Part shown: in pieces, positions 2,823 through 59,425 of the stretch
How positions within the stretch are numbered: the stretch's first letter is position 1
Layout of the letters: every line of letters begins with the position of its first letter
Sequence record: KT454806
Length of the DNA: 64,000 nucleotides
From: Escherichia phage SUSP2
Strand: one strand, 5' to 3'
Position numbers and translations under genes: made by a program
The notes under the pieces: generated by a model
Told to the model about the DNA's origin: nothing
The model's database searches: none
Seen by the model: the letters and a program-made list of their open reading frames with translations, nothing else

Positions 2823-3180
2823 AACTCACCTCATATAAAATTTTGTATACATTCAAGTATAAAAATAAGCTATAACACCTGACTTGTCAACAGATTTTAT
2901 AGCTTATTTGGCAGATTTTTTATAAGGCTACTGCCATCCTTCCATACCTCACCGCACCCTACTACACCCCCACCTTACCGAACCGCGCCATACCAAACAT
3001 CACTTAAAAACCCTTTTCAAAGACTCTTAAGTGATGTAATCGAATTTTAATGTAGCTCCGATTAACTACCCATACCTCACCTCACCTAACCTCACATTAC
3101 CAAACCGCATACTACCTCATTAAAAGACCCTGTTTAAAGGCCTTTTAAAAAGGAGCCTCCGAAGAGGCTACCTAGTCAAC
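2823..3180. repeat. G-depleted C/A-rich intergenic repeat module A (imperfect copy of 4227-4604)
   Basis: Shares with 4227-4604 the blocks ccatacc(t)tacc.., ctcattaaaagaccctNtttaaagNccttttaaaaagg and the 10-bp-arm palindrome catcacttaa..ttaagtgatg. Confidence 0.6.
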
Positions 3181-3621
3181 TTAGAAAGGTTTTCTACGTT
3201 GCTTGTTAATGTTAGCTTTCATAGCGGCTAAATGGTTTTGCTGTTCAATCAATCGTGAACGTTCTTGATGACTAAGTGCCATAGTGTTCACATTCTCAAT
3301 TGCTTGAGTCGCTTGCTTTAAGGCGCGACCAATCTTACCAGACATTTTACGTTTTGCAATAGTTGCTTGATGTTTTGGTTCAACTACACGATAACCCACA
3401 CCCATTGAAGCAACCAGATAAATCTTTTCTTCTTTAAGAAGCTTTTCGATAAACTTCTCAAGTCGGTTTAATCGTGTCAGAGAATAAGCCTTCATCTCAT
3501 CTTCGTACTTAACAATATCACCCTGATAAGTTGGCTTCACAATACCTAAGAAGGTATCCATTTCAGAGTGTGATACAGTATCACCGTAACTAAACTTTGC
3601 TGCTAATGCTTTTGTATTCAT
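3181..3621 (-). CDS. hypothetical protein
   Basis: 146 aa ORF inside cassette bracketed by repeat modules. Confidence 0.5.
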   Translation of the reverse strand: MNTKALAAKFSYGDTVSHSEMDTFLGIVKPTYQGDIVKYEDEMKAYSLTRLNRLEKFIEKLLKEEKIYLVASMGVGYRVVEPKHQATIAKRKMSGKIGRALKQATQAIENVNTMALSHQERSRLIEQQNHLAAMKANINKQRRKPF

Positions 3622-3623
3622 AA

Positions 3624-4604
<981 letters not shown>

Positions 4605-4792: not shown

Positions 4793-5896
4793 CTATTCAT
4801 AATCCCTAATAACGAGACCAACAGGGAACTGTAAAGACCCCTTACGAGTCATCTTCTGGAACTGAACCGTCAAAGGTTTCCCGATAAACTCTTCAGGATG
4901 TTCAGCAAGATACTGTTTCTTTTCATGGGTAGTTTTCCATGAAACATCTACAAAGACGTTAGGAAGAGTCTCTACAACGAACTTACCATGACCACGTTTA
5001 TCAGTCTTCACACCAGTTACTTTAAATTCTTCCGTGTGCATCTTCTTATGCTTAATCAGGAAGTAAGAACGGTGACCACACTCATAGAAAGATTCTGCTG
5101 AGATGGAACGGTACATTGCCCCTTCAAACTTCAGCTTAACCCAATTGTCATGGGCTTTGTCGAACTCTTCCCAAGAGTTAACACGGATAGTTTGCACAGG
5201 TACAACCCTACAAGCATCACCGAGTTCAACAATTGGAGAGTTATCAATGATTTCACGGCGCTCAGGCCAAGTTTTAGTTTTGTCACAGATATCATACCAG
5301 TAGAATTTAAGTAGGTGACGGTCTGGATTGTCAGCATTCTTAATCATAGACACGATATCTTCTAAATCCCAACCATGAGCATAGATTTCACCATCAAAAT
5401 CTTGAACTTGTGGGTGGCATTTAAGCATCAGAAGCAAGTCTGGAATTAACTCTTCAGGTACGTTGTACACAGTATTTTCACGGGAGTAAGCTGTGAAGTT
5501 CACTGAGTCAGCATCTCTTGATATACGGCAACGAACACCATCAAGCTTCGGTTGAGCATCAGCAGGGAACTTCAAATACTTGGCATGACTGACCTTTGCA
5601 GCATCTTGTGCAAGTTGTACACCAACCTTCTCAGTGTTCTCTGCTTCAGATTTTGTGTAAGCATAACCTTTACGGTCAACCTGTTTCTTGTACTTAGCAG
5701 CAACTTCAAAGAGAGCTTGCTGTTCAGCATTACGCTCATTCTTTTTACCGATGTTTTTCGGTTCTGCTGTGTACTCTTCAAACATCATCTTGCCATTTTC
5801 TTTGCCATACGTGGTAACAACTTTGTCACCTACAGCGACACATGACCAGACATTAAAAGAGCCATCTTTATTTTGTTTGTACAGAATTGTCATCAT
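4793..5896 (-). CDS. ATP-dependent DNA ligase
   Basis: PKLDGVRC matches ligase adenylation motif I (KxDGxR); about 370 aa as in T7/T4-type ligases; start chosen at internal Met overlapping upstream stop. Confidence 0.8.
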   Translation of the reverse strand: MMTILYKQNKDGSFNVWSCVAVGDKVVTTYGKENGKMMFEEYTAEPKNIGKKNERNAEQQALFEVAAKYKKQVDRKGYAYTKSEAENTEKVGVQLAQDAAKVSHAKYLKFPADAQPKLDGVRCRISRDADSVNFTAYSRENTVYNVPEELIPDLLLMLKCHPQVQDFDGEIYAHGWDLEDIVSMIKNADNPDRHLLKFYWYDICDKTKTWPERREIIDNSPIVELGDACRVVPVQTIRVNSWEEFDKAHDNWVKLKFEGAMYRSISAESFYECGHRSYFLIKHKKMHTEEFKVTGVKTDKRGHGKFVVETLPNVFVDVSWKTTHEKKQYLAEHPEEFIGKPLTVQFQKMTRKGSLQFPVGLVIRDYE

Positions 5897-6087
5897 CAAT
5901 CTCCAGAATGATACCAAGTGTCACAAGAGTTACACGCGAAGAGTTTTAAATCCTCCTTGTTTGGTTTATGAAAACAATTTGCCCCACAACGGCAATGGAA
6001 TGCCTTACCACCAACTGTCAAGATAAAAGACTCAACCTCTCCATCAGGTGTTCTTACAGCATTCTTAAATTTGTCTTCTTTACTCAT
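5896..6087 (-). CDS. small zinc-binding protein
   Basis: 63 aa with CRCGANCFH..CNSCDTWYH. Confidence 0.45.
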   Translation of the reverse strand: MSKEDKFKNAVRTPDGEVESFILTVGGKAFHCRCGANCFHKPNKEDLKLFACNSCDTWYHSGD

Positions 6088-6290
6088 TTTCTCTTCCCAC
6101 CAATTTCTACATCAATAACCTGAACATCACCAGCAACATCAAACTTGTGAATGATGTTCTCTACAGTGTAAGTCCAACCTTCAATGCGAACCCATTCACC
6201 TTCTCGTGGTACTATTGGATTACGTTGAGCTACCGTTGTAGTAGAGTGAACAACATCATAACGGTATACATAGTTTACTAAAACTTGCAT
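6084..6290 (-). CDS. hypothetical protein
   Basis: 68 aa ORF. Confidence 0.4.
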   Translation of the reverse strand: MQVLVNYVYRYDVVHSTTTVAQRNPIVPREGEWVRIEGWTYTVENIIHKFDVAGDVQVIDVEIGGKRK

Positions 6291-6299
6291 AGTGTTTCC

Positions 6300-6527
6300 T
6301 TAAAAGAATAAGTCAGAGGCTTTTGGAGAATCTTGCACAATACTCCACCCTGATTTCTGCCAATCAAGACCACGATACCATGAAGTCATCGGGTAACCCA
6401 TTTCACAGACAATGGTTCCATCTTTCATTTCAAAGAACTCATCAGATGTGAAGTTCTCATTACGTACTTTCTTACCTTGCTTCATTGCTTCAACAGCTTC
6501 TTCAAAAGTCATTTTTGGTTTCTCCAA
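6300..6527 (-). CDS. hypothetical protein
   Basis: 75 aa ORF. Confidence 0.45.
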   Translation of the reverse strand: MEKPKMTFEEAVEAMKQGKKVRNENFTSDEFFEMKDGTIVCEMGYPMTSWYRGLDWQKSGWSIVQDSPKASDLFF

Positions 6528-6530
6528 TAC

Positions 6531-6743
6531 TTAAAAGTTAATGTCGATGCGTTCACCCTTAAGGACTCCAGTGCGGTCTCTTGCAATCTTACCGTCAACA
6601 ATAAGGATATGTGCAGCCCTTAAAGAGTCACGATTAAAACCTTTTACGAACTTACTAGGCATCACTACAATGAGCATCTCCTGAATCAACTCTGGAGTGT
6701 AGCAGTTGTCGTGAAGTTGTTGGATAACGTCTGAAAGTGTCAT
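6531..6743 (-). CDS. hypothetical protein
   Basis: 70 aa ORF. Confidence 0.4.
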   Translation of the reverse strand: MTLSDVIQQLHDNCYTPELIQEMLIVVMPSKFVKGFNRDSLRAAHILIVDGKIARDRTGVLKGERIDINF

Positions 6744-6794
6744 AAACCCTCCTATACAAGATACAGTATAAGGTACTCTTCCATGAGCACCTTG

Positions 6795-7322
6795 TCAACT
6801 TAGTTTTGCAAACTCTCCGTGAAGTTTCATAGAAGCTTCACAGTAAGCTTTATGGGCTTCTTCAGGGGTGTCATAGTAGCCTAATGACATCTTTTTACCT
6901 TTATAGCTTATTTGCGCAACCCACCTACCAGACTTCTTCTTCAGGCTTACACCCTTATAGCCTGATTTATTGGTGGATAGTTTGCTTTTATTCCAAGCAC
7001 TTTGGCAGTCGTCTGCTTCTCTTAAGTTTACAATCCTGTTATCAAGGGAGTCCCCATTACTATGGTCAATAACACCTTTAGGTAACCTACCATACACGTA
7101 CAGCCATGCGAGTCTGTGCGCTTTATGTGCTTTCTTGTCAAAATAGATAGTAATCTGCTTATGACCAGTTGAGTCAATCTGGAGGCTTCCCGCTACCTGT
7201 CCTGCGTACTGGCTATTAAAAACTTTAACAGCCTTTGAGTCGCCCTCTCTACGAAGCCAAGTAAAGACCCCTATTTCGGGGTCATAGTGTAGTAGTTCCT
7301 TTAAACGTTCTTGTGTAATCAT
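6795..7322 (-). CDS. HNH homing endonuclease with AP2 DNA-binding domain
   Basis: HRLAWLYVYG..IDHSNGDSLDNRIVNLREA (HNH) followed by SGYKGVS..SGRWVAQISYKGKKMSLGYYDTPEEAHKAY (AP2); sits directly downstream of the DNA polymerase gene. Confidence 0.8.
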   Translation of the reverse strand: MITQERLKELLHYDPEIGVFTWLRREGDSKAVKVFNSQYAGQVAGSLQIDSTGHKQITIYFDKKAHKAHRLAWLYVYGRLPKGVIDHSNGDSLDNRIVNLREADDCQSAWNKSKLSTNKSGYKGVSLKKKSGRWVAQISYKGKKMSLGYYDTPEEAHKAYCEASMKLHGEFAKLS

Positions 7323-7332
7323 TTTGTCACCA

Positions 7333-10032
7333 TTAATGCACTTCCAACCACGATTTACCGACCTTACCAGTACCAGTTACCAGTGTTTTACTCTTTAGTC
7401 CTAAGTTCTTAGAGGCTTGCCCGTAATACCAATCAGTGACAGCCTTCACCTCTGCCGTCATACTTTCTGGACATTCCCAACTTGTCTCATCGTGATAGGA
7501 GCACAATAAACGAGCACCTATAGCTGGTTTACGACCGTTCAACTTCATCAAACCTTCGTCAATCATACGACGGCAAGCAAGGTTAATTGCCTCGTTCTGA
7601 ATCTGGCTTTCCGAACCCATCAGTAAGTAGTTCAATAGTTTGTGTGGAGATTTACACCACAACCATGCTCCAGCCACCTTGACAAAACCACCTTTAGAGA
7701 TTGCAGCAGTCTTACCAAATACTTCTTCAAGTGCTTTCTTAGTTGCTTTAAAGTCAGCTTCCAAGTTGTCTAACAGTTTCTTAATCTTCGGCAAACGCAC
7801 AAAGTAAGTCTGTTTAGTTAATGCACCTTCCTGAGTAGTCGCAGCTTTAATCGTCTTAGCAAACTTCTCATCACCAGCACCGAACAGTAACGCATAGATA
7901 CCATTCTTAGCTTTCTTACGACCTTTGCTAATTTCGTGAAGAAGATTTTCATCCTGAGTCATACGACAAGTCAAGATATCTTGTTCTTCATTCAAGCTGA
8001 AGTAGATACTGTTCAGTGTATGTGCATCAGTACCTGAGTAAACTACGTACAAGTCATTTTCAGAGTCGTAATGCAGATACTTATCAACTTCTGGATTCAG
8101 GTATTCGTCAAAGTGTTTGCAGTAGTATCTGCCATCTTCCTGACGGATAAACTCAATCTCTTCTTTACCCTGAGTTACTGCTTTGGTGAACTCTTTGTCA
8201 CCCATAAAGTTGCACAGTAAAACAAGTTGCGCTGAATTCATGTCAACGGAGACTACGTTTGTACCTTCTTCACAAATCCAGACTGCCCTCATTGGTTCAC
8301 CGTAAACAGCAGCCCCAGAAGGTACGTTCACGATTCCGTATTGTGTCATACGTCCAGTTGAAGTGCCAAACACCATTGCACCAGCACTCAAACGACCATC
8401 TGGACGAATCTGGTTTAACCAACCTTTTTCATCATCCTTTGAGTTCTCGATAGTTCTGCGTCGGTGCATCAAAGTATAGTACTTCGCAATCTTCTGTCCA
8501 AGTTCACCTTCAATCGTATCGTAAGATGATTCAGTCAGTTTCGGTGAAGTCCGAATCAAGCAAGGTTCAAGCAAATCTGTGTACTTCTTAACAGACCAGT
8601 TGTGTTCGATGTACTGTACACCTTCATGCTCAACATAGTTCAATCCGCAACGGTCTACCATCTCTTGCCATTTCGGATGTTTACGAATCATCTTCTTGTT
8701 GTCTTTGAAGCGACAAACCTTCACCGGACGACCATCAGAATCTTTCTTGTAGTTCCAGTCATCAGGAATCCAGCCAAGAGTTTTCAGATAATCCTTCACA
8801 ACCGCAACCTGAGTCATACGCGACACTTCGAACTCAATCGGTGTATAAGGTGCATCAATCAAACCTGTGTAACGACTTGACTCAAGTTCAAAGTGATTTA
8901 CTACGTGGTTGTTGTAGTACTTCACAGTCTTCACAGTCTTAACTGGTTTCCAGTCTTTGCACTTCTTATCAATCGCAGCATTCAACTCATTACAAACTGC
9001 ACGAGCATCTTTCATTGCAACGAAACCTTCTTTGTACTCTTCTCCAGTAACCGTGTTAGTCGGAGTGTAGCAGTTACGCTTCTCAATGTTGAAAATCTTG
9101 GTAGTCGGTTTACCAAAAGGCTTGATAGCGTAAGTCTGCATCTCACCATTGCGAACCTGCTGACGGAACTTAGTTTTTGGATACTTAGTGATACGCTTCA
9201 AACCATCTGCTTCACCAAATGTCTCAACATACTCGTTCCAAGCCCTTGCAAACTCTTCACCAGTGACTTTGCCTTTCGTCTTAATAGTTGGTGGCAGATG
9301 AGGCTCAACTTCAGCAGCTAATTCATCAGTCAGTCTGTCAAGTTCTTTGACATGGAACTGCATAAGTTCAATATCAGCTTTCCAACCGTTAATAGCTTGC
9401 TGACTCATCCAGAAAGATGTTTCTTTAGCTCGCATGTAGGTTTCGTAAGTGTCTACACCACACTTCTTCAGTTTCAGGTATTCATTATCAAGAGCACGTT
9501 TAGCTTTGGCGTTGATTCGAATATCCTCAACAACACGGTTCAGAATGTCAGCATTCCAGACACCCCACTCTTCAATTTCTGGTTTACGAACACCAACACG
9601 AGCACCCCATGCAGCCAAACCATGAGCACCTTTGTAACCTTTCGGTGTAGGTCTATCCATCCACTGAACACGAGACTGGATAAGAGAATCCTGAAAGAAG
9701 TCTCCCCAAGGTTTACACTTCGGATTGTCAAAGTTCCATAAGTCCGGTGCAATGTGATTGAACACCCACCAGTCATAGCCAAGACCGTTATGAATGCAGA
9801 GACGTTTTGCCTTAAGAGCAAACTCCACACCTTCACGAAGACCACCTTTGATGTACTTAGTACACTTGTGACCAAGGATAGGTTCATCGGTGAAGACCCA
9901 CACAGCAGGTTCGTCACTGTCATCTTTGTAATCTGCAAATGCCATTACGTGTGCTTTTGTGAACTCAAGGAGTAACCCATCAGTTTCGGTATCACCTACC
10001 AAGTGCAAGTTTTCAAAATCTACGTTTTCCAT
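7333..10032 (-). CDS. family A DNA polymerase with 3'-5' exonuclease domain
   Basis: 899 aa; exo motif VGDTETDGL; motif A VVSVDMNSAQLVLL; motif B KGRKKAKNGIYALLFGAG; motif C YHDE. Confidence 0.9.
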   Translation of the reverse strand: MENVDFENLHLVGDTETDGLLLEFTKAHVMAFADYKDDSDEPAVWVFTDEPILGHKCTKYIKGGLREGVEFALKAKRLCIHNGLGYDWWVFNHIAPDLWNFDNPKCKPWGDFFQDSLIQSRVQWMDRPTPKGYKGAHGLAAWGARVGVRKPEIEEWGVWNADILNRVVEDIRINAKAKRALDNEYLKLKKCGVDTYETYMRAKETSFWMSQQAINGWKADIELMQFHVKELDRLTDELAAEVEPHLPPTIKTKGKVTGEEFARAWNEYVETFGEADGLKRITKYPKTKFRQQVRNGEMQTYAIKPFGKPTTKIFNIEKRNCYTPTNTVTGEEYKEGFVAMKDARAVCNELNAAIDKKCKDWKPVKTVKTVKYYNNHVVNHFELESSRYTGLIDAPYTPIEFEVSRMTQVAVVKDYLKTLGWIPDDWNYKKDSDGRPVKVCRFKDNKKMIRKHPKWQEMVDRCGLNYVEHEGVQYIEHNWSVKKYTDLLEPCLIRTSPKLTESSYDTIEGELGQKIAKYYTLMHRRRTIENSKDDEKGWLNQIRPDGRLSAGAMVFGTSTGRMTQYGIVNVPSGAAVYGEPMRAVWICEEGTNVVSVDMNSAQLVLLCNFMGDKEFTKAVTQGKEEIEFIRQEDGRYYCKHFDEYLNPEVDKYLHYDSENDLYVVYSGTDAHTLNSIYFSLNEEQDILTCRMTQDENLLHEISKGRKKAKNGIYALLFGAGDEKFAKTIKAATTQEGALTKQTYFVRLPKIKKLLDNLEADFKATKKALEEVFGKTAAISKGGFVKVAGAWLWCKSPHKLLNYLLMGSESQIQNEAINLACRRMIDEGLMKLNGRKPAIGARLLCSYHDETSWECPESMTAEVKAVTDWYYGQASKNLGLKSKTLVTGTGKVGKSWLEVH

Positions 10033-10093
10033 TTTTACTCCCTCTCAAAATCATTGACTCAATACATTACTGCAAAAAGTTTCAAAAAGCAAG

Positions 10094-10122
10094 TTGACAA
10101 TTCACTTGACAAGGTGTTAATC
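10094..10122 (+). promoter_or_regulatory. candidate sigma70-like promoter in divergent region
   Basis: TTGACA, 17 bp spacer, TTAATC; weak -10. Confidence 0.3.
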
Positions 10123-10289
10123 TTTGCGAAGTGGGTTTTAACTTAAAAGACTCCCTTTACAGATTAACTATACAGTTTCTTTAAAACCCTTAAAAGATTT
10201 TTAATAGCTTTTAAGAAGCTTTAAAGTTATACGTATAGAATACGTAAAGAAAACAGATTAAGTTTAATAGGTACTTAAAAGAGGGCATT

Positions 10290-10712
10290 ATGCAGAGAAT
10301 GTTTGTTCACCCAGACATAGCTGACTTCATGAGAGCTTTAAAAAAGTTGGAAGAACTTGACATTGCTGCTCAAAAGGAATACGCTTACCATCATCGTCGA
10401 ATGGTTGATGTTCAACATGAGATTGAACTCTCCGAAGGCTACGATGAAAGAATGAAATGTTCAGTCTTTGAGCATATGAAGGAGATATCGGCTGAGAGGC
10501 GTAAAGCAAAAGATACACTCTTCTTGATAGATTCTTTAAAAAAGAAGTTGCAAAACGGAACAGACTTAGATAACCTAGCAACACTGATTAGCGATGTAGA
10601 AAGTTCATGGGATAGACATTACTTCCCAAGGTCTGAAAAAGTTCTTGACTTTTCCTCTACAGAGAGCTTAAAGTTATCACGACAAACACTTAACAAAATG
10701 AGAGAGAATTAA
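10290..10712 (+). CDS. hypothetical protein
   Basis: 140 aa, first gene of plus-strand block. Confidence 0.5.
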   Translation: MQRMFVHPDIADFMRALKKLEELDIAAQKEYAYHHRRMVDVQHEIELSEGYDERMKCSVFEHMKEISAERRKAKDTLFLIDSLKKKLQNGTDLDNLATLISDVESSWDRHYFPRSEKVLDFSSTESLKLSRQTLNKMREN

Positions 10713-10713
10713 T

Positions 10714-11517
10714 ATGACTACTGTAAATGAAATGCTGGCCTCTAAAGGTATCGATAGCAACTTTATGCTGAACACTATTGAAAGCCTTGCTATCGTTATG
10801 CGTAGCAACACCTTCAGTTCACAAGTAATTCCTGAATCTTATCAGGTTAACGCAGAGATTTCTGATGAGTCAGCATTTCGCTCACAGGTTGAACTGCTTC
10901 TGAATAACCGTCAACTGGCTCTGGCTTCAGTGGCTGTTGGTGTAGATGCCTTGGCTGGTTATGTCTTTGACAAGATGCAAACTGGCGACTACAAAGTTCT
11001 CTCTGAAGAAGAGAAAGAAGCACTGCTTGAGTTCACTGAAGACGACACCTTCAACCTGATTATCAACTCAATTGCAAGCGTGATGGCTGTACTTGAGAAA
11101 CGTGTTACAGAAAAACTCCCACACTATGAAAAACTTGATTGGGGTTTTGCAGATATCTTTGAGCGTTCACAGGAAATGGTGAAGCTGACTAAAGAGCAAC
11201 TTCAAGAGGTTGTTGACAATGAAGCTGAACGTGGAATTGATGAGATTCAGGTCAAACTGACCGCTCTGGTTCCTTCAATCATCACAGTGATGAGTATTCA
11301 CGCTCTGTTCGAAGTTGCAGGTATGATTGATGCACCTATTGAGTTTGTGGAGCAGATTGCTGGTAATGTAAGTGGTGAAGCACTGCGTGAAGTGATTATG
11401 CAAACTGGTGCGGCAGTTCTTCAAGACAAGATTGCCATCCACTTCGGTGATGAATTTGTAGCAACTATTCAGGCTCTGTCTGAAAAAGAAAAGCTTGATT
11501 CTACACAAATTCACTAA
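10714..11517 (+). CDS. hypothetical acidic protein
   Basis: 267 aa ORF. Confidence 0.5.
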   Translation: MTTVNEMLASKGIDSNFMLNTIESLAIVMRSNTFSSQVIPESYQVNAEISDESAFRSQVELLLNNRQLALASVAVGVDALAGYVFDKMQTGDYKVLSEEEKEALLEFTEDDTFNLIINSIASVMAVLEKRVTEKLPHYEKLDWGFADIFERSQEMVKLTKEQLQEVVDNEAERGIDEIQVKLTALVPSIITVMSIHALFEVAGMIDAPIEFVEQIAGNVSGEALREVIMQTGAAVLQDKIAIHFGDEFVATIQALSEKEKLDSTQIH

Positions 11518-58110: not shown

Positions 58111-58187
58111 CTCCGTTTAGCTCAGTTTGGTAGAGTGCGCCGTTTGGGGCGGTGAGGTCGAAGGTTCAATCCCTTCAACGGAGACCA
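58111..58187 (+). tRNA. tRNA-Pro (anticodon UGG)
   Basis: Hand-folded cloverleaf: acceptor ctccgtt/aacggag, anticodon loop tttgggg, T-arm gaagg-ttcaatc-ccttc, encoded CCA. Confidence 0.75.
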
Positions 58188-58194
58188 AATTAAT

Positions 58195-58272
58195 GTTCCA
58201 GTAGACAAATTGGTAAAGTCACCACACTTTCAATGTGGAGTTTTGAGGGTTCAAGTCCCTTCTGGAACGCCA
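58195..58272 (+). tRNA. tRNA-Glu (UUC)
   Basis: Acceptor gttccag/ctggaac, anticodon loop ctttcaa, CCA. Confidence 0.75.
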
Positions 58273-58355
58273 AATTTGACAGAAGACCAAGTACAGCAAA
58301 TAACTTTACTTTTCGCGCATAGAAAACTTAAAAGTTTGGTCTGGTCATAAAAGTT

Positions 58356-58432
58356 CGCGGGTATAGAGAAAGGGCGTCTCACATGTCTCATTAGCATGGT
58401 ATCGGCAGGTTCGACTCCTGCACCCGCCTCCA
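58356..58432 (+). tRNA. tRNA-like gene, anticodon CAU (Met/Ile2/fMet undetermined)
   Basis: T-arm gcagg-ttcgact-cctgc, anticodon loop ctcatta; 1-72 mismatch and unusual discriminator. Confidence 0.4.
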
Positions 58433-58514
58433 AATTTGCAGAAGACCGTTTACAGCAATCTCAAAAATTTTTATCGGAAAAAATGAAAAGATACGGTCTG
58501 GCAATACTAAACAT

Positions 58515-58591
58515 GGTGAGGAAGCACATAAGGCATGTGCGGTCGGCTGTTAACCGAATGGTATAGGGTTCGAATCCCTAACTCACCGCCA
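58515..58591 (+). tRNA. tRNA-Asn (GUU)
   Basis: Anticodon loop ctgttaa, T-arm taggg-ttcgaat-cccta, CCA. Confidence 0.7.
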
Positions 58592-58651
58592 AGATTTGGG
58601 AGAGAAGCGTAATGCTCACCGATTTGTAAGGTGCAAGTCCTTAGCCTGAAT

Positions 58652-58739
58652 AGAATAAAATGCGTCGTTATCCCGTAGATGGAAGCGGTGGTGACTGTAA
58701 ATCACTTGTCATTATGACTCGGTAGGTTCGACTCCTTCA
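58652..58739 (+). tRNA. tRNA-Tyr (GUA), long variable arm
   Basis: Acceptor gcgtcgt/acggcgc, anticodon loop ctgtaaa, 88 nt. Confidence 0.65.
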
Positions 58740-58745
58740 CGGCGC

Positions 58746-58823
58746 ACCAAATAAAGGTTATGTAGTTTAATCTGGTTAAAATACTCCCCTGTCACGGGAG
58801 ATGATGAGGGTTCGAATCCCTTC
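58746..58823 (+). tRNA. tRNA-Asp (GUC)
   Basis: Anticodon loop ctgtcac, stem ctccc/gggag, CCA. Confidence 0.75.
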
Positions 58824-59261
58824 GTAACCGCCAAATTTGAGAGGGCTTTTTAGCCCCTCCCTTAAAGAGTTCTTACGAGTATTCTTTAAAGGAGCAGAAG
58901 ACCAAATTCAGCAAGCCAACTTAAAAAATTTCAAGCCAATTTAATTTTGAAAAATTTAAAACTTGGTCTGGCTCAACAAATTTACAGAAGACCGTTTACA
59001 GCAAGTATAAAACAATCTATTTCTCTGGTAAAGAAAAGGCGAAGGTTCGATTCCTTCACACGTTACGGCGTGTTGGTGTAATGGTAGCACTTAAGATAAA
59101 ACAACGGTCTGGTAATCTTCTTTGCAGTGACTTATGGAGCTAAATGCCGTCCCATGAGTGCCGATGAATTTCCTTAGCATGATTCTAGATTAGCTTAATA
59201 GGAAATGACTCTACAAACCCTTTAGCAAGGTTTGCGTAGGTTACTGCAAAGATGATTTAAT

Positions 59262-59337
59262 GGGAGTGTAGCAGAATGGTGATGCGGCAGACTTTTAATC
59301 TGACAGGCGACGGGTTCGAATCCCTCCACTCCTACCA
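59262..59337 (+). tRNA. tRNA-Lys (UUU)
   Basis: Acceptor gggagtg/cactcct, anticodon loop cttttaa; weak T-stem. Confidence 0.6.
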
Positions 59338-59343
59338 AATAAT

Positions 59344-59420
59344 GGTTCAGTCGCAGATAAGGTAATGCAAGGGTTTCATAAGCCCTATGAATGTGGGTTC
59401 GAATCCCATCTGAACCTCCA
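59344..59420 (+). tRNA. tRNA-Met-type (CAU)
   Basis: Acceptor ggttcag/ctgaacc, anticodon loop ttcataa. Confidence 0.65.
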
Positions 59421-59425
59421 ATTAT

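Follow-up and report, generated by a model that had tools for sequence, protein, structure and literature searches.

A probable free-standing HNH-AP2 homing endonuclease gene in a polymorphic slot behind the DNA polymerase gene of Escherichia phage SUSP2

An endonuclease gene directly behind the polymerase gene

The open reading frame (ORF) at positions 6795..7322 of Escherichia phage SUSP2 (KT454806) is very probably a free-standing homing endonuclease gene, encoding an I-HmuI-like HNH part joined to an AP2 domain and lodged in an intergenic slot that follows the DNA polymerase gene. It was analyzed within a stretch of 64,000 nucleotides, referred to here as the window. The gene is an ordinary, already annotated, known kind of element in a phage group whose abundance of HNH genes was already recognized, and our analysis adds an allelic series in one slot, a quantified co-conversion-like block, and a conserved internal hairpin. 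The features that define the gene and the slot are the following.

6795..7322, minus strand: probable free-standing HNH-AP2 homing endonuclease gene, intact, 175 aa (ORF, Pfam, and PHROG)
7333..10032, minus strand: family-A DNA polymerase gene, uninterrupted, 899 aa, the conserved essential neighbor
7323..7332, minus strand: 10-nt gap between the polymerase stop codon and the endonuclease ATG, TGGTGACAAA
6744..6798, minus strand: conserved spacer, the downstream boundary of the slot, TTGACAAGGTGCTCATGGAAGAGTACCTTATACT...TAGGAGG
7014..7124, minus strand: HNH_3 catalytic core, aa 67-103 (Pfam envelope)
6816..6965, minus strand: AP2 DNA-binding domain, aa 120-169 (Pfam)

The endonuclease ORF runs from an ATG at 7322-7320 to a TGA at 6797-6795 on the minus strand, and this stop codon sits within the TTGACA of the spacer (6793-6798). 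The upstream ORF matches Pfam DNA_pol_A and PHROG 17 ('DNA polymerase', E 4.7e-111). A first-pass annotation made from the sequence had placed an HNH-AP2 endonuclease directly after the polymerase gene, and the ORF coordinates, both domains, the 10-nt gap, and the shared strand all agree with it. Its description of the architecture as free-standing was likewise upheld: the gene follows the polymerase stop codon, it is intergenic between conserved genes and inside neither an intron nor an intein, and Rfam returned zero introns over the window at gathering thresholds. An intron-encoded endonuclease was rejected on the same Rfam result, together with the position of the intron that some relatives carry, which lies 560 nt upstream and has a different ORF.

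The 10-nt gap contains GGTGA, a weak Shine-Dalgarno-like sequence. A scan of 7323..7332 for sigma-70-like promoters found none, and the endonuclease gene appears to lack a promoter of its own. The conserved spacer at 6744..6798, located ahead of the next small genes, may act as a promoter; as a repeated regulatory motif it was rejected, since it is unique within the 64-kb window and was not called by a consensus promoter scan. Neither tblastn nor the family HMM detected a second member of the endonuclease family in the window.

The region matches Escherichia phage phiSUSP1 (Suspvirus, Ounavirinae) at 95-100% and many Felixounavirus genomes at 83-88%. The endonuclease gene is 100% identical at the nucleotide level to the phiSUSP1 gene for ALH47075.1, which is annotated as 'putative homing endonuclease.' No foreign base composition was seen, as the GC content of the gene (42.0%, versus 42.9% for the polymerase gene) equals that of its neighbors. 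This native composition points to a long residence in the phage group and not to a recent arrival from outside.

Domains, predicted fold, and constraint

Both domains scored well above their Pfam cutoffs, with HNH_3 (PF13392) at 52.9 bits (cutoff 24.8, E 2.8e-14) and AP2 (PF00847) at 51.2 bits (cutoff 33.3, E 1.6e-13). The whole protein matched PHROG 99, 'HNH endonuclease' (E 1.6e-71), and the family is large, with 2,304 matches at E ≤ 1e-5. The HNH motif is of the D-H...N...N form (D86-H87, N95, and N99-L100-R101, followed by N111). In an alignment of 32 homologues, D86, H87, N99, L100, R101, and N111 were invariant and N95 was at least 90% conserved.

An AlphaFold2 model of the 175-aa protein had a pLDDT of 94.6, and the top PDB match of the whole model in Foldseek was I-HmuI (1u3e; E 7.2e-4, probability 1.00). 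The TM-score of this match was only 0.38 because the domains are arranged differently. The AP2 part superposed on the AP2 domains of TEM1 and AtERF1 with an rmsd of 0.9-1.2 Å over 50-54 residues, and a sequence-only search of the PDB retrieved, for this part, the plant AP2/ERF structures WRI1 (7wq5, E 2.4e-6), TEM1 (7et4), and ERF096. The HNH part matched nothing in that search, and I-HmuI surfaced only in the structure comparison. On this prediction, AP2 forms the C-terminal DNA-binding module of a protein whose N-terminal and HNH parts are I-HmuI-like.

Comparison with five close copies gave dN/dS values of 0.14-0.23 for the endonuclease gene, and the protein is therefore under purifying selection. 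It would be expected to act as a nuclease, either by nicking or by double-strand cutting. Our literature search found no report of activity, target site, or inheritance bias for the protein or its close relatives, no phiSUSP1 paper that mentions the gene, no experimental characterization of the Felix O1 or phiSUSP1 HNH-AP2 genes, and no mapped target for the HNH-AP2 enzyme class.

Polymorphism and allelic series at the slot

Distribution of the gene was analyzed for 35 loci (34 of them distinct) around the polymerase 3' end, drawn from GenBank phages and IMG/VR. The IMG/VR sample comprised 22 distinct Ounavirinae contigs retrieved via the polymerase C-terminus alone, and because this was the sole criterion for fetching them, these loci are unbiased toward the endonuclease. 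The slot, measured from the polymerase stop codon to the spacer, was occupied in 21 of the 34 loci and empty in 13; for the IMG/VR contigs the corresponding counts were 10 and 12 out of 22. The conserved spacer was found in all 34 loci. It starts 14-15 nt past the polymerase stop codon in empty loci versus 490-543 nt in occupied ones, where an HNH-AP2 ORF lies in between.

Slot state differs even within one genus. In the Suspvirus EcSzw-2, whose backbone is 95-96% identical, the polymerase stop codon is followed by the spacer 15 nt later with no endonuclease gene, and phiSUSP1 is occupied. The first-pass annotation had suggested that such a gene can mark sites polymorphic between related phages, and comparison of the polymerase 3' flanks bears this out: since 13 of 34 loci are empty, among them EcSzw-2 and 12 of the 22 IMG/VR contigs, the gene is not universal at this position, and the site is polymorphic within a single genus.

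Sorted by amino acid identity to the window protein, the occupants make up at least five divergent HNH-AP2 lineages, at 93-100%, 84-86%, 73%, 50-55%, and 44-47%. All of them share the C-terminus KLHG(E/D)FAKLS and have their stop codon within the TTGACA of the spacer. In Felix O1, the slot after the polymerase gene is occupied by ORF95. The occupants behave like allelic forms of one slot. In the copy of Salmonella phage D1-2 (locus L005, 1770-2261), the 3' arm of the hairpin described below is longer by one G (GGGGGTC), which causes an early frameshift; this copy is probably decaying, and its frameshift fits the decay phase expected of such elements.

A high-identity block spanning the gene and its flanks

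Identity to relatives changes sharply around the endonuclease gene, and the sliding comparisons delimited the following features.

6531-7618, genes on the minus strand: high-identity block in which the 70-aa ORF and the spacer lie on one side of the endonuclease gene and the final 286 nt of the polymerase gene on the other
7333..7618, minus strand: polymerase tail (last 286 nt of the polymerase gene), a co-conversion-like tract
6531..6743, minus strand: 70-aa ORF, PHROG 4230 (function unknown, E 3.3e-42), on the far side of the block

Against phiSUSP1, the block had 0 mismatches in 1,088 nt (100%), versus 92.4% identity outside it (Fisher p 3e-33). Against three felixounaviruses, identity was 95.1-95.4% within the block and 84.0-85.8% outside (Fisher p 1e-20 to 1e-25). 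The relationship is inverted for the endonuclease-less EcSzw-2, with 84.9% identity in the alignable part of the block and 95.7% outside. Over all of these contrasts, Fisher p ranged from 4e-13 to 3e-33.

Each part of the block contributes to this pattern. The polymerase tail is 100% identical to that of phiSUSP1 and 98-99% identical to those of felixounaviruses DaR-2019b, VpaE1_ev78, and dune. Against EcSzw-2 its identity is just 82-88%, and beyond ~7620 identity to the felixounaviruses drops to 85-91%. On the other side, the 70-aa ORF is 100% identical to its phiSUSP1 counterpart and 92-94% identical to those of the felixounaviruses. The dS of the endonuclease gene was 0.11-0.14 against four felixounavirus copies and 0.22 against a fifth, SapYZU01. 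In the felixounavirus comparison, dS was 0.09-0.13 for the polymerase tail versus 1.1-1.2 for the polymerase core, and synonymous divergence was overall tenfold lower in the endonuclease gene and its flanks than in the surrounding genome. The gene and its flanks thus share a recent history that differs from that of the rest of the genome, as co-conversion predicts.

T4-like phages harbor free-standing endonucleases that spread through 'intronless homing' accompanied by co-conversion, many of these genes being promoter-less cassettes (PMC2988022). Homing endonuclease genes have also been located at recombination boundaries beside essential phage genes (PMC10448857). The block at 6531-7618 fits the signature expected of homing with co-conversion. 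Its history explains discordant phylogenies obtained from the polymerase 3' end, and the slot serves as a landmark for a recombination boundary in the genomes of Suspvirus and Felixounavirus, phages that are used for typing and biocontrol.

Affinities also shift elsewhere in the window. Positions 5001-6527 are ~96% identical to EcSzw-2 and ~85% identical to phiSUSP1, and roughly 9800-11000 is, like the block, 100% identical to phiSUSP1. The window genome forms a mosaic of these two sequenced Suspvirus types, with one breakpoint at the edge of the block. In EcSzw-2 (locus L001, 2211-2420), an unrelated 69-aa Felix01p174-like ORF replaces the 70-aa PHROG 4230 ORF, and many felixounaviruses carry both ORFs, in either order.

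Polymerase tail alleles and the candidate target

The last 242 nt of the polymerase gene formed 12 allele clusters across the 34 loci, with identities to the window of 71-100% across loci, versus 84-96.5% for the polymerase core. Breakpoints cluster at ~7575-7620, at a conserved stretch encoding MGSESQIQNEAINLAC. The window-type endonuclease is paired with three different polymerase tails, S19cd and CECAV_041 diverge from the start of the endonuclease gene onward, and locus L007 has a window-type tail with no endonuclease gene. Because endonuclease lineage and tail allele are so loosely linked, the cleavage site is not deducible by comparing endonuclease-bearing with endonuclease-less alleles, and that approach was ruled out.

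These pairings bear on where the target may lie. Since the window-type endonuclease occurs with three tails and the L007 tail occurs without the gene, the simplest account is a target at the empty junction that would be destroyed by the insertion itself; we consider this location close to an even proposition. A target in the polymerase tail is a more tentative candidate that nevertheless deserves serious weight.

A group I intron in the polymerase gene of relatives

In some Felixounavirus and Suspvirus relatives, the polymerase gene is split by a group I intron between the equivalents of positions 7889 and 7890, within KNGIYA/LLFGAG (the slash marks the insertion point). The intron of D1-2 (locus L005, 2912-3195) was assigned to group I by Rfam at 62 bits against a gathering score of 50 and has no ORF. 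That of PC79-13 (locus L003, ~3065-3870) contains a 160-aa Endo VII-like ORF and, at 26.5 bits (E 0.0024), did not reach the gathering score. The ORF-less intron corresponds to a gap of 268-310 nt in D1-2, REP5, and S19cd; PC79-13 and five IMG/VR contigs show a gap of about 800 nt. The intron-split loci also include L024-L028, L032, and L035. The Felix O1 genome, with its six HNH endonuclease genes, has been described as intron-free (PMC3185647).

Among the 22 IMG/VR contigs, one had both the intron and the endonuclease, four had the intron only, nine had the endonuclease only, and eight had neither. Collaborative homing with the polymerase intron was rejected, as the two elements assort independently and co-occur no more often than by chance. 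The tract of high identity also speaks against it, ending near 7620 and thus ~270 nt short of the intron site at 7889.

A conserved hairpin inside the ORF

A scan for terminators flagged one hairpin within the endonuclease gene.

7266..7283, minus strand: hairpin GACCCC-N6-GGGGTC, codons 14-19 (D P E I G V)

In RNA form it reads GACCCC-GAAAUA-GGGGUC followed by UUUACUU, with a 6-bp G+C-rich stem and a 6-nt loop. It occurs once in the window, where 0 occurrences are expected. Eight HNH-AP2 lineages of the Ounavirinae, which share 32-75% amino acid identity and include paralogues from another genomic site, have invariant stem codons (GAC CCC and GGG GTC). In the alignment of these lineages, 28 columns have an invariant amino acid. 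Only six of the 28 use a single codon, and four of those six are the stem codons; other conserved Gly, Ala, and Pro positions use two to four codons each. The loop varies (GAAATA, GAAACA, GATACA, TTAACA, and GACAAA). The sole stem variant is GACTCC in SapYZU01, which changes Pro to Ser and keeps a G-U pair.

The stem is built from the rarest codons of the genome. CCC does not encode a single Pro in the 18 longest ORFs (250 codons or more) and supplies 11 of 390 Pro codons (2.8%) in ORFs of at least 150 codons, GGG makes up 6-7% of Gly codons, and GTC makes up 10-11% of Val codons. Across the whole window, CCCC and GGGG tetramers reach ~65% of the number expected from base composition. Taken on its codon pattern, selection on the hairpin at the nucleotide level is well supported. 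No compensatory double changes that would support stem pairing were found among the lineages.

Several accounts of this conservation were set aside. The hairpin is not a trait of the HNH-AP2 family as a whole, as none of 64 distant homologues gathered through protein similarity had a perfect stem and Felix O1 ORF128 is likewise without it. Its maintenance by gene conversion between paralogues is unlikely, as sequences differ in the loop and on either side of the 6-nt stems, which are themselves identical. A role as a terminator of the classical intrinsic type in every lineage is doubtful, given that the U-tract varies (UUUACUU, UUAACU, and UUCUAC) and that the 101-nt context of the hairpin has a folding z of -1.38, which is not unusually stable. 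In the centroid fold, no stable element other than the hairpin is present. Among 50 exact matches to the pattern, 13 place the identical sequence with a T-run between genes of unrelated phage contigs, where it is an obvious terminator.

As a first guess, the hairpin could be an attenuator that limits expression of a promoter-less cassette. A broader and more speculative proposal, which we would not call probable, has two parts: the hairpin would be a cis-element of the Felix O1-group HNH-AP2 genes, either an attenuator or partial terminator on a read-through transcript or an operator bound by AP2, and slot endonucleases of different specificities would displace one another and so drive the hypervariability of the region coding for the polymerase C-terminus. 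If this were true, an attenuator or partial terminator would keep a toxic nuclease low on the polymerase read-through transcript. The rare-codon hairpin poses a small, testable question about how promoter-less nuclease cassettes stay in check.

Proposed spread by homing and alternative explanations

Under the homing reading, the promoter-less endonuclease gene would be transcribed by read-through from the polymerase gene, as suggested by analogy with the promoter-less seg and mob cassettes of T4 (PMC2988022). During mixed infection, the enzyme would cut or nick the allele of a related phage that lacks the gene, its target lying either at or close to the empty junction or within the final ~300 nt of the polymerase coding sequence. 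With the genome that carries the endonuclease as template, repair would then transfer the gene along with flanking DNA of variable length. Three points sit less easily with this scheme: the high-identity block could stem from ordinary homologous recombination in a hot region, independently of any nuclease; endonuclease lineage and polymerase tail allele are loosely linked; and the base composition of the gene equals that of its neighbors. phiSUSP1-like and EcSzw-2-like phages form a natural pair for measuring homing by an HNH-AP2 enzyme.

Some of the same observations could be read as the trace of a resident gene that no longer homes, with the pattern produced by ordinary recombination and deletion among variable small genes and the protein kept for another role, such as interference with co-infecting relatives or recombination-stimulating nicking. 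The region downstream of the polymerase gene is indeed mosaic, with the 70-aa and Felix01p174-like ORFs swapped, duplicated, or missing; the 12 tail alleles assort loosely with endonuclease lineage; and the base composition is native. An intron-encoded endonuclease has been reported to act in phage-phage competition (PMC11620839). However, the empty sites are precise and alike across subclades, so that a never-invaded state fits them better than repeated deletions do, and the sharpest contrast in identity is centered on the endonuclease gene itself. Homing and interference can, moreover, coexist. We therefore regard a non-homing resident as unlikely.

Very improbable is a protein that serves mainly as a DNA-binding regulator through AP2, acting on the adjacent spacer or on its own palindrome with a vestigial HNH part: the ORF end within the TTGACA of the spacer, the conserved G/C-rich palindrome in the 5' region of the gene, and the reported precedent of I-TevI, a homing endonuclease said to repress its own gene, speak for it, but the catalytic HNH residues are invariant and under purifying selection, and the gene is missing from about half of otherwise similar phages, which is hard to square with a needed regulator.

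Comparison with known systems

The closest structural parallel is I-HmuI of Bacillus phage SPO1 (PDB 1U3E), a nickase. Both proteins have an N-terminal beta-rich DNA-contact region followed by a D-H...N...N HNH core, and each is linked to the family-A DNA polymerase gene of a phage. They differ in that I-HmuI is encoded in a group I intron, whereas the window gene lies past the stop codon with no intron, and in that their identity is only ~16%, with no significant sequence-only match. The C-terminal DNA-binding module in the I-HmuI structure is reportedly a helix-turn-helix, where the window protein has AP2.

In genomic setting, the gene resembles the mob (e.g., mobE) and seg genes of T4, which are intergenic promoter-less cassettes between conserved genes and are polymorphic among relatives (PMC2988022). 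Co-conversion of flanking markers is a further likeness (PMC2988022 and PMC2790892). The DNA-binding module, AP2 in the window protein, and the phage family set them apart. The cleavage sites of the T4 enzymes have been mapped, hundreds of bp from the gene, whereas the window data fit the junction about as well as the polymerase tail.

Within the Felix O1-like phages, comparable HNH-AP2 genes are ORF95, ORF106, and ORF128 of Felix O1 and the phiSUSP1 gene that is identical in nucleotide sequence to the window gene. ORF95 occupies the same post-polymerase slot, but it has ~45% protein identity to the window lineage and overlaps the polymerase gene. A free-standing endonuclease beside a gene that bears an intron in some relatives also recalls F-CphI and the psbA intron ('collaborative homing') and mobE and I-TevIII ('trans homing'). 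Unlike in the F-CphI type of pairing, the slot endonuclease and the polymerase intron are unassociated.

Other features of the window

Four arrays of YNNGG pentamers lie on the minus strand within 2942-3105 and 4294-4517, flanking the ORFs at 3181..3621 and 3624..4226.

2968-2997, minus strand: YNNGG array, 6 units
3070-3094, minus strand: YNNGG array, 5 units
4320-4364, minus strand: YNNGG array, 9 units
4472-4511, minus strand: YNNGG array, 8 units

The arrays correspond to the vrRNA repeats reported for phage SUSP1 as part of its 'Viral Interference Programmable Repeat' (VIPR) system (bioRxiv 10.64898/2026.04.26.720920), and the Vipr protein is presumably encoded by one of the two ORFs that they flank. 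That preprint also describes small-RNA sequencing of cells infected with SUSP1.

A 75-aa ORF at 6300-6527 (minus strand) scored 24.7 bits against the Pfam Tad2-like (anti-Thoeris) family, just below the cutoff of 25 (E 3.5e-5), and gave weak matches to five solved Tad2 proteins (E 0.3-0.7). It may encode a small anti-defense sponge.

Between 39600 and 45800, repeated elements of 60-95 nt precede at least seven start codons, each element ending in CCTAAACTGGAGATTCAAAAATG and many of them following a TTTACA...GGGG(N)CCCC hairpin. An early gene cluster probably uses these elements as common promoter and leader modules. Finally, 23 tRNA genes are clustered on the plus strand at 58111-63575, as is usual in Felix O1-like phages.
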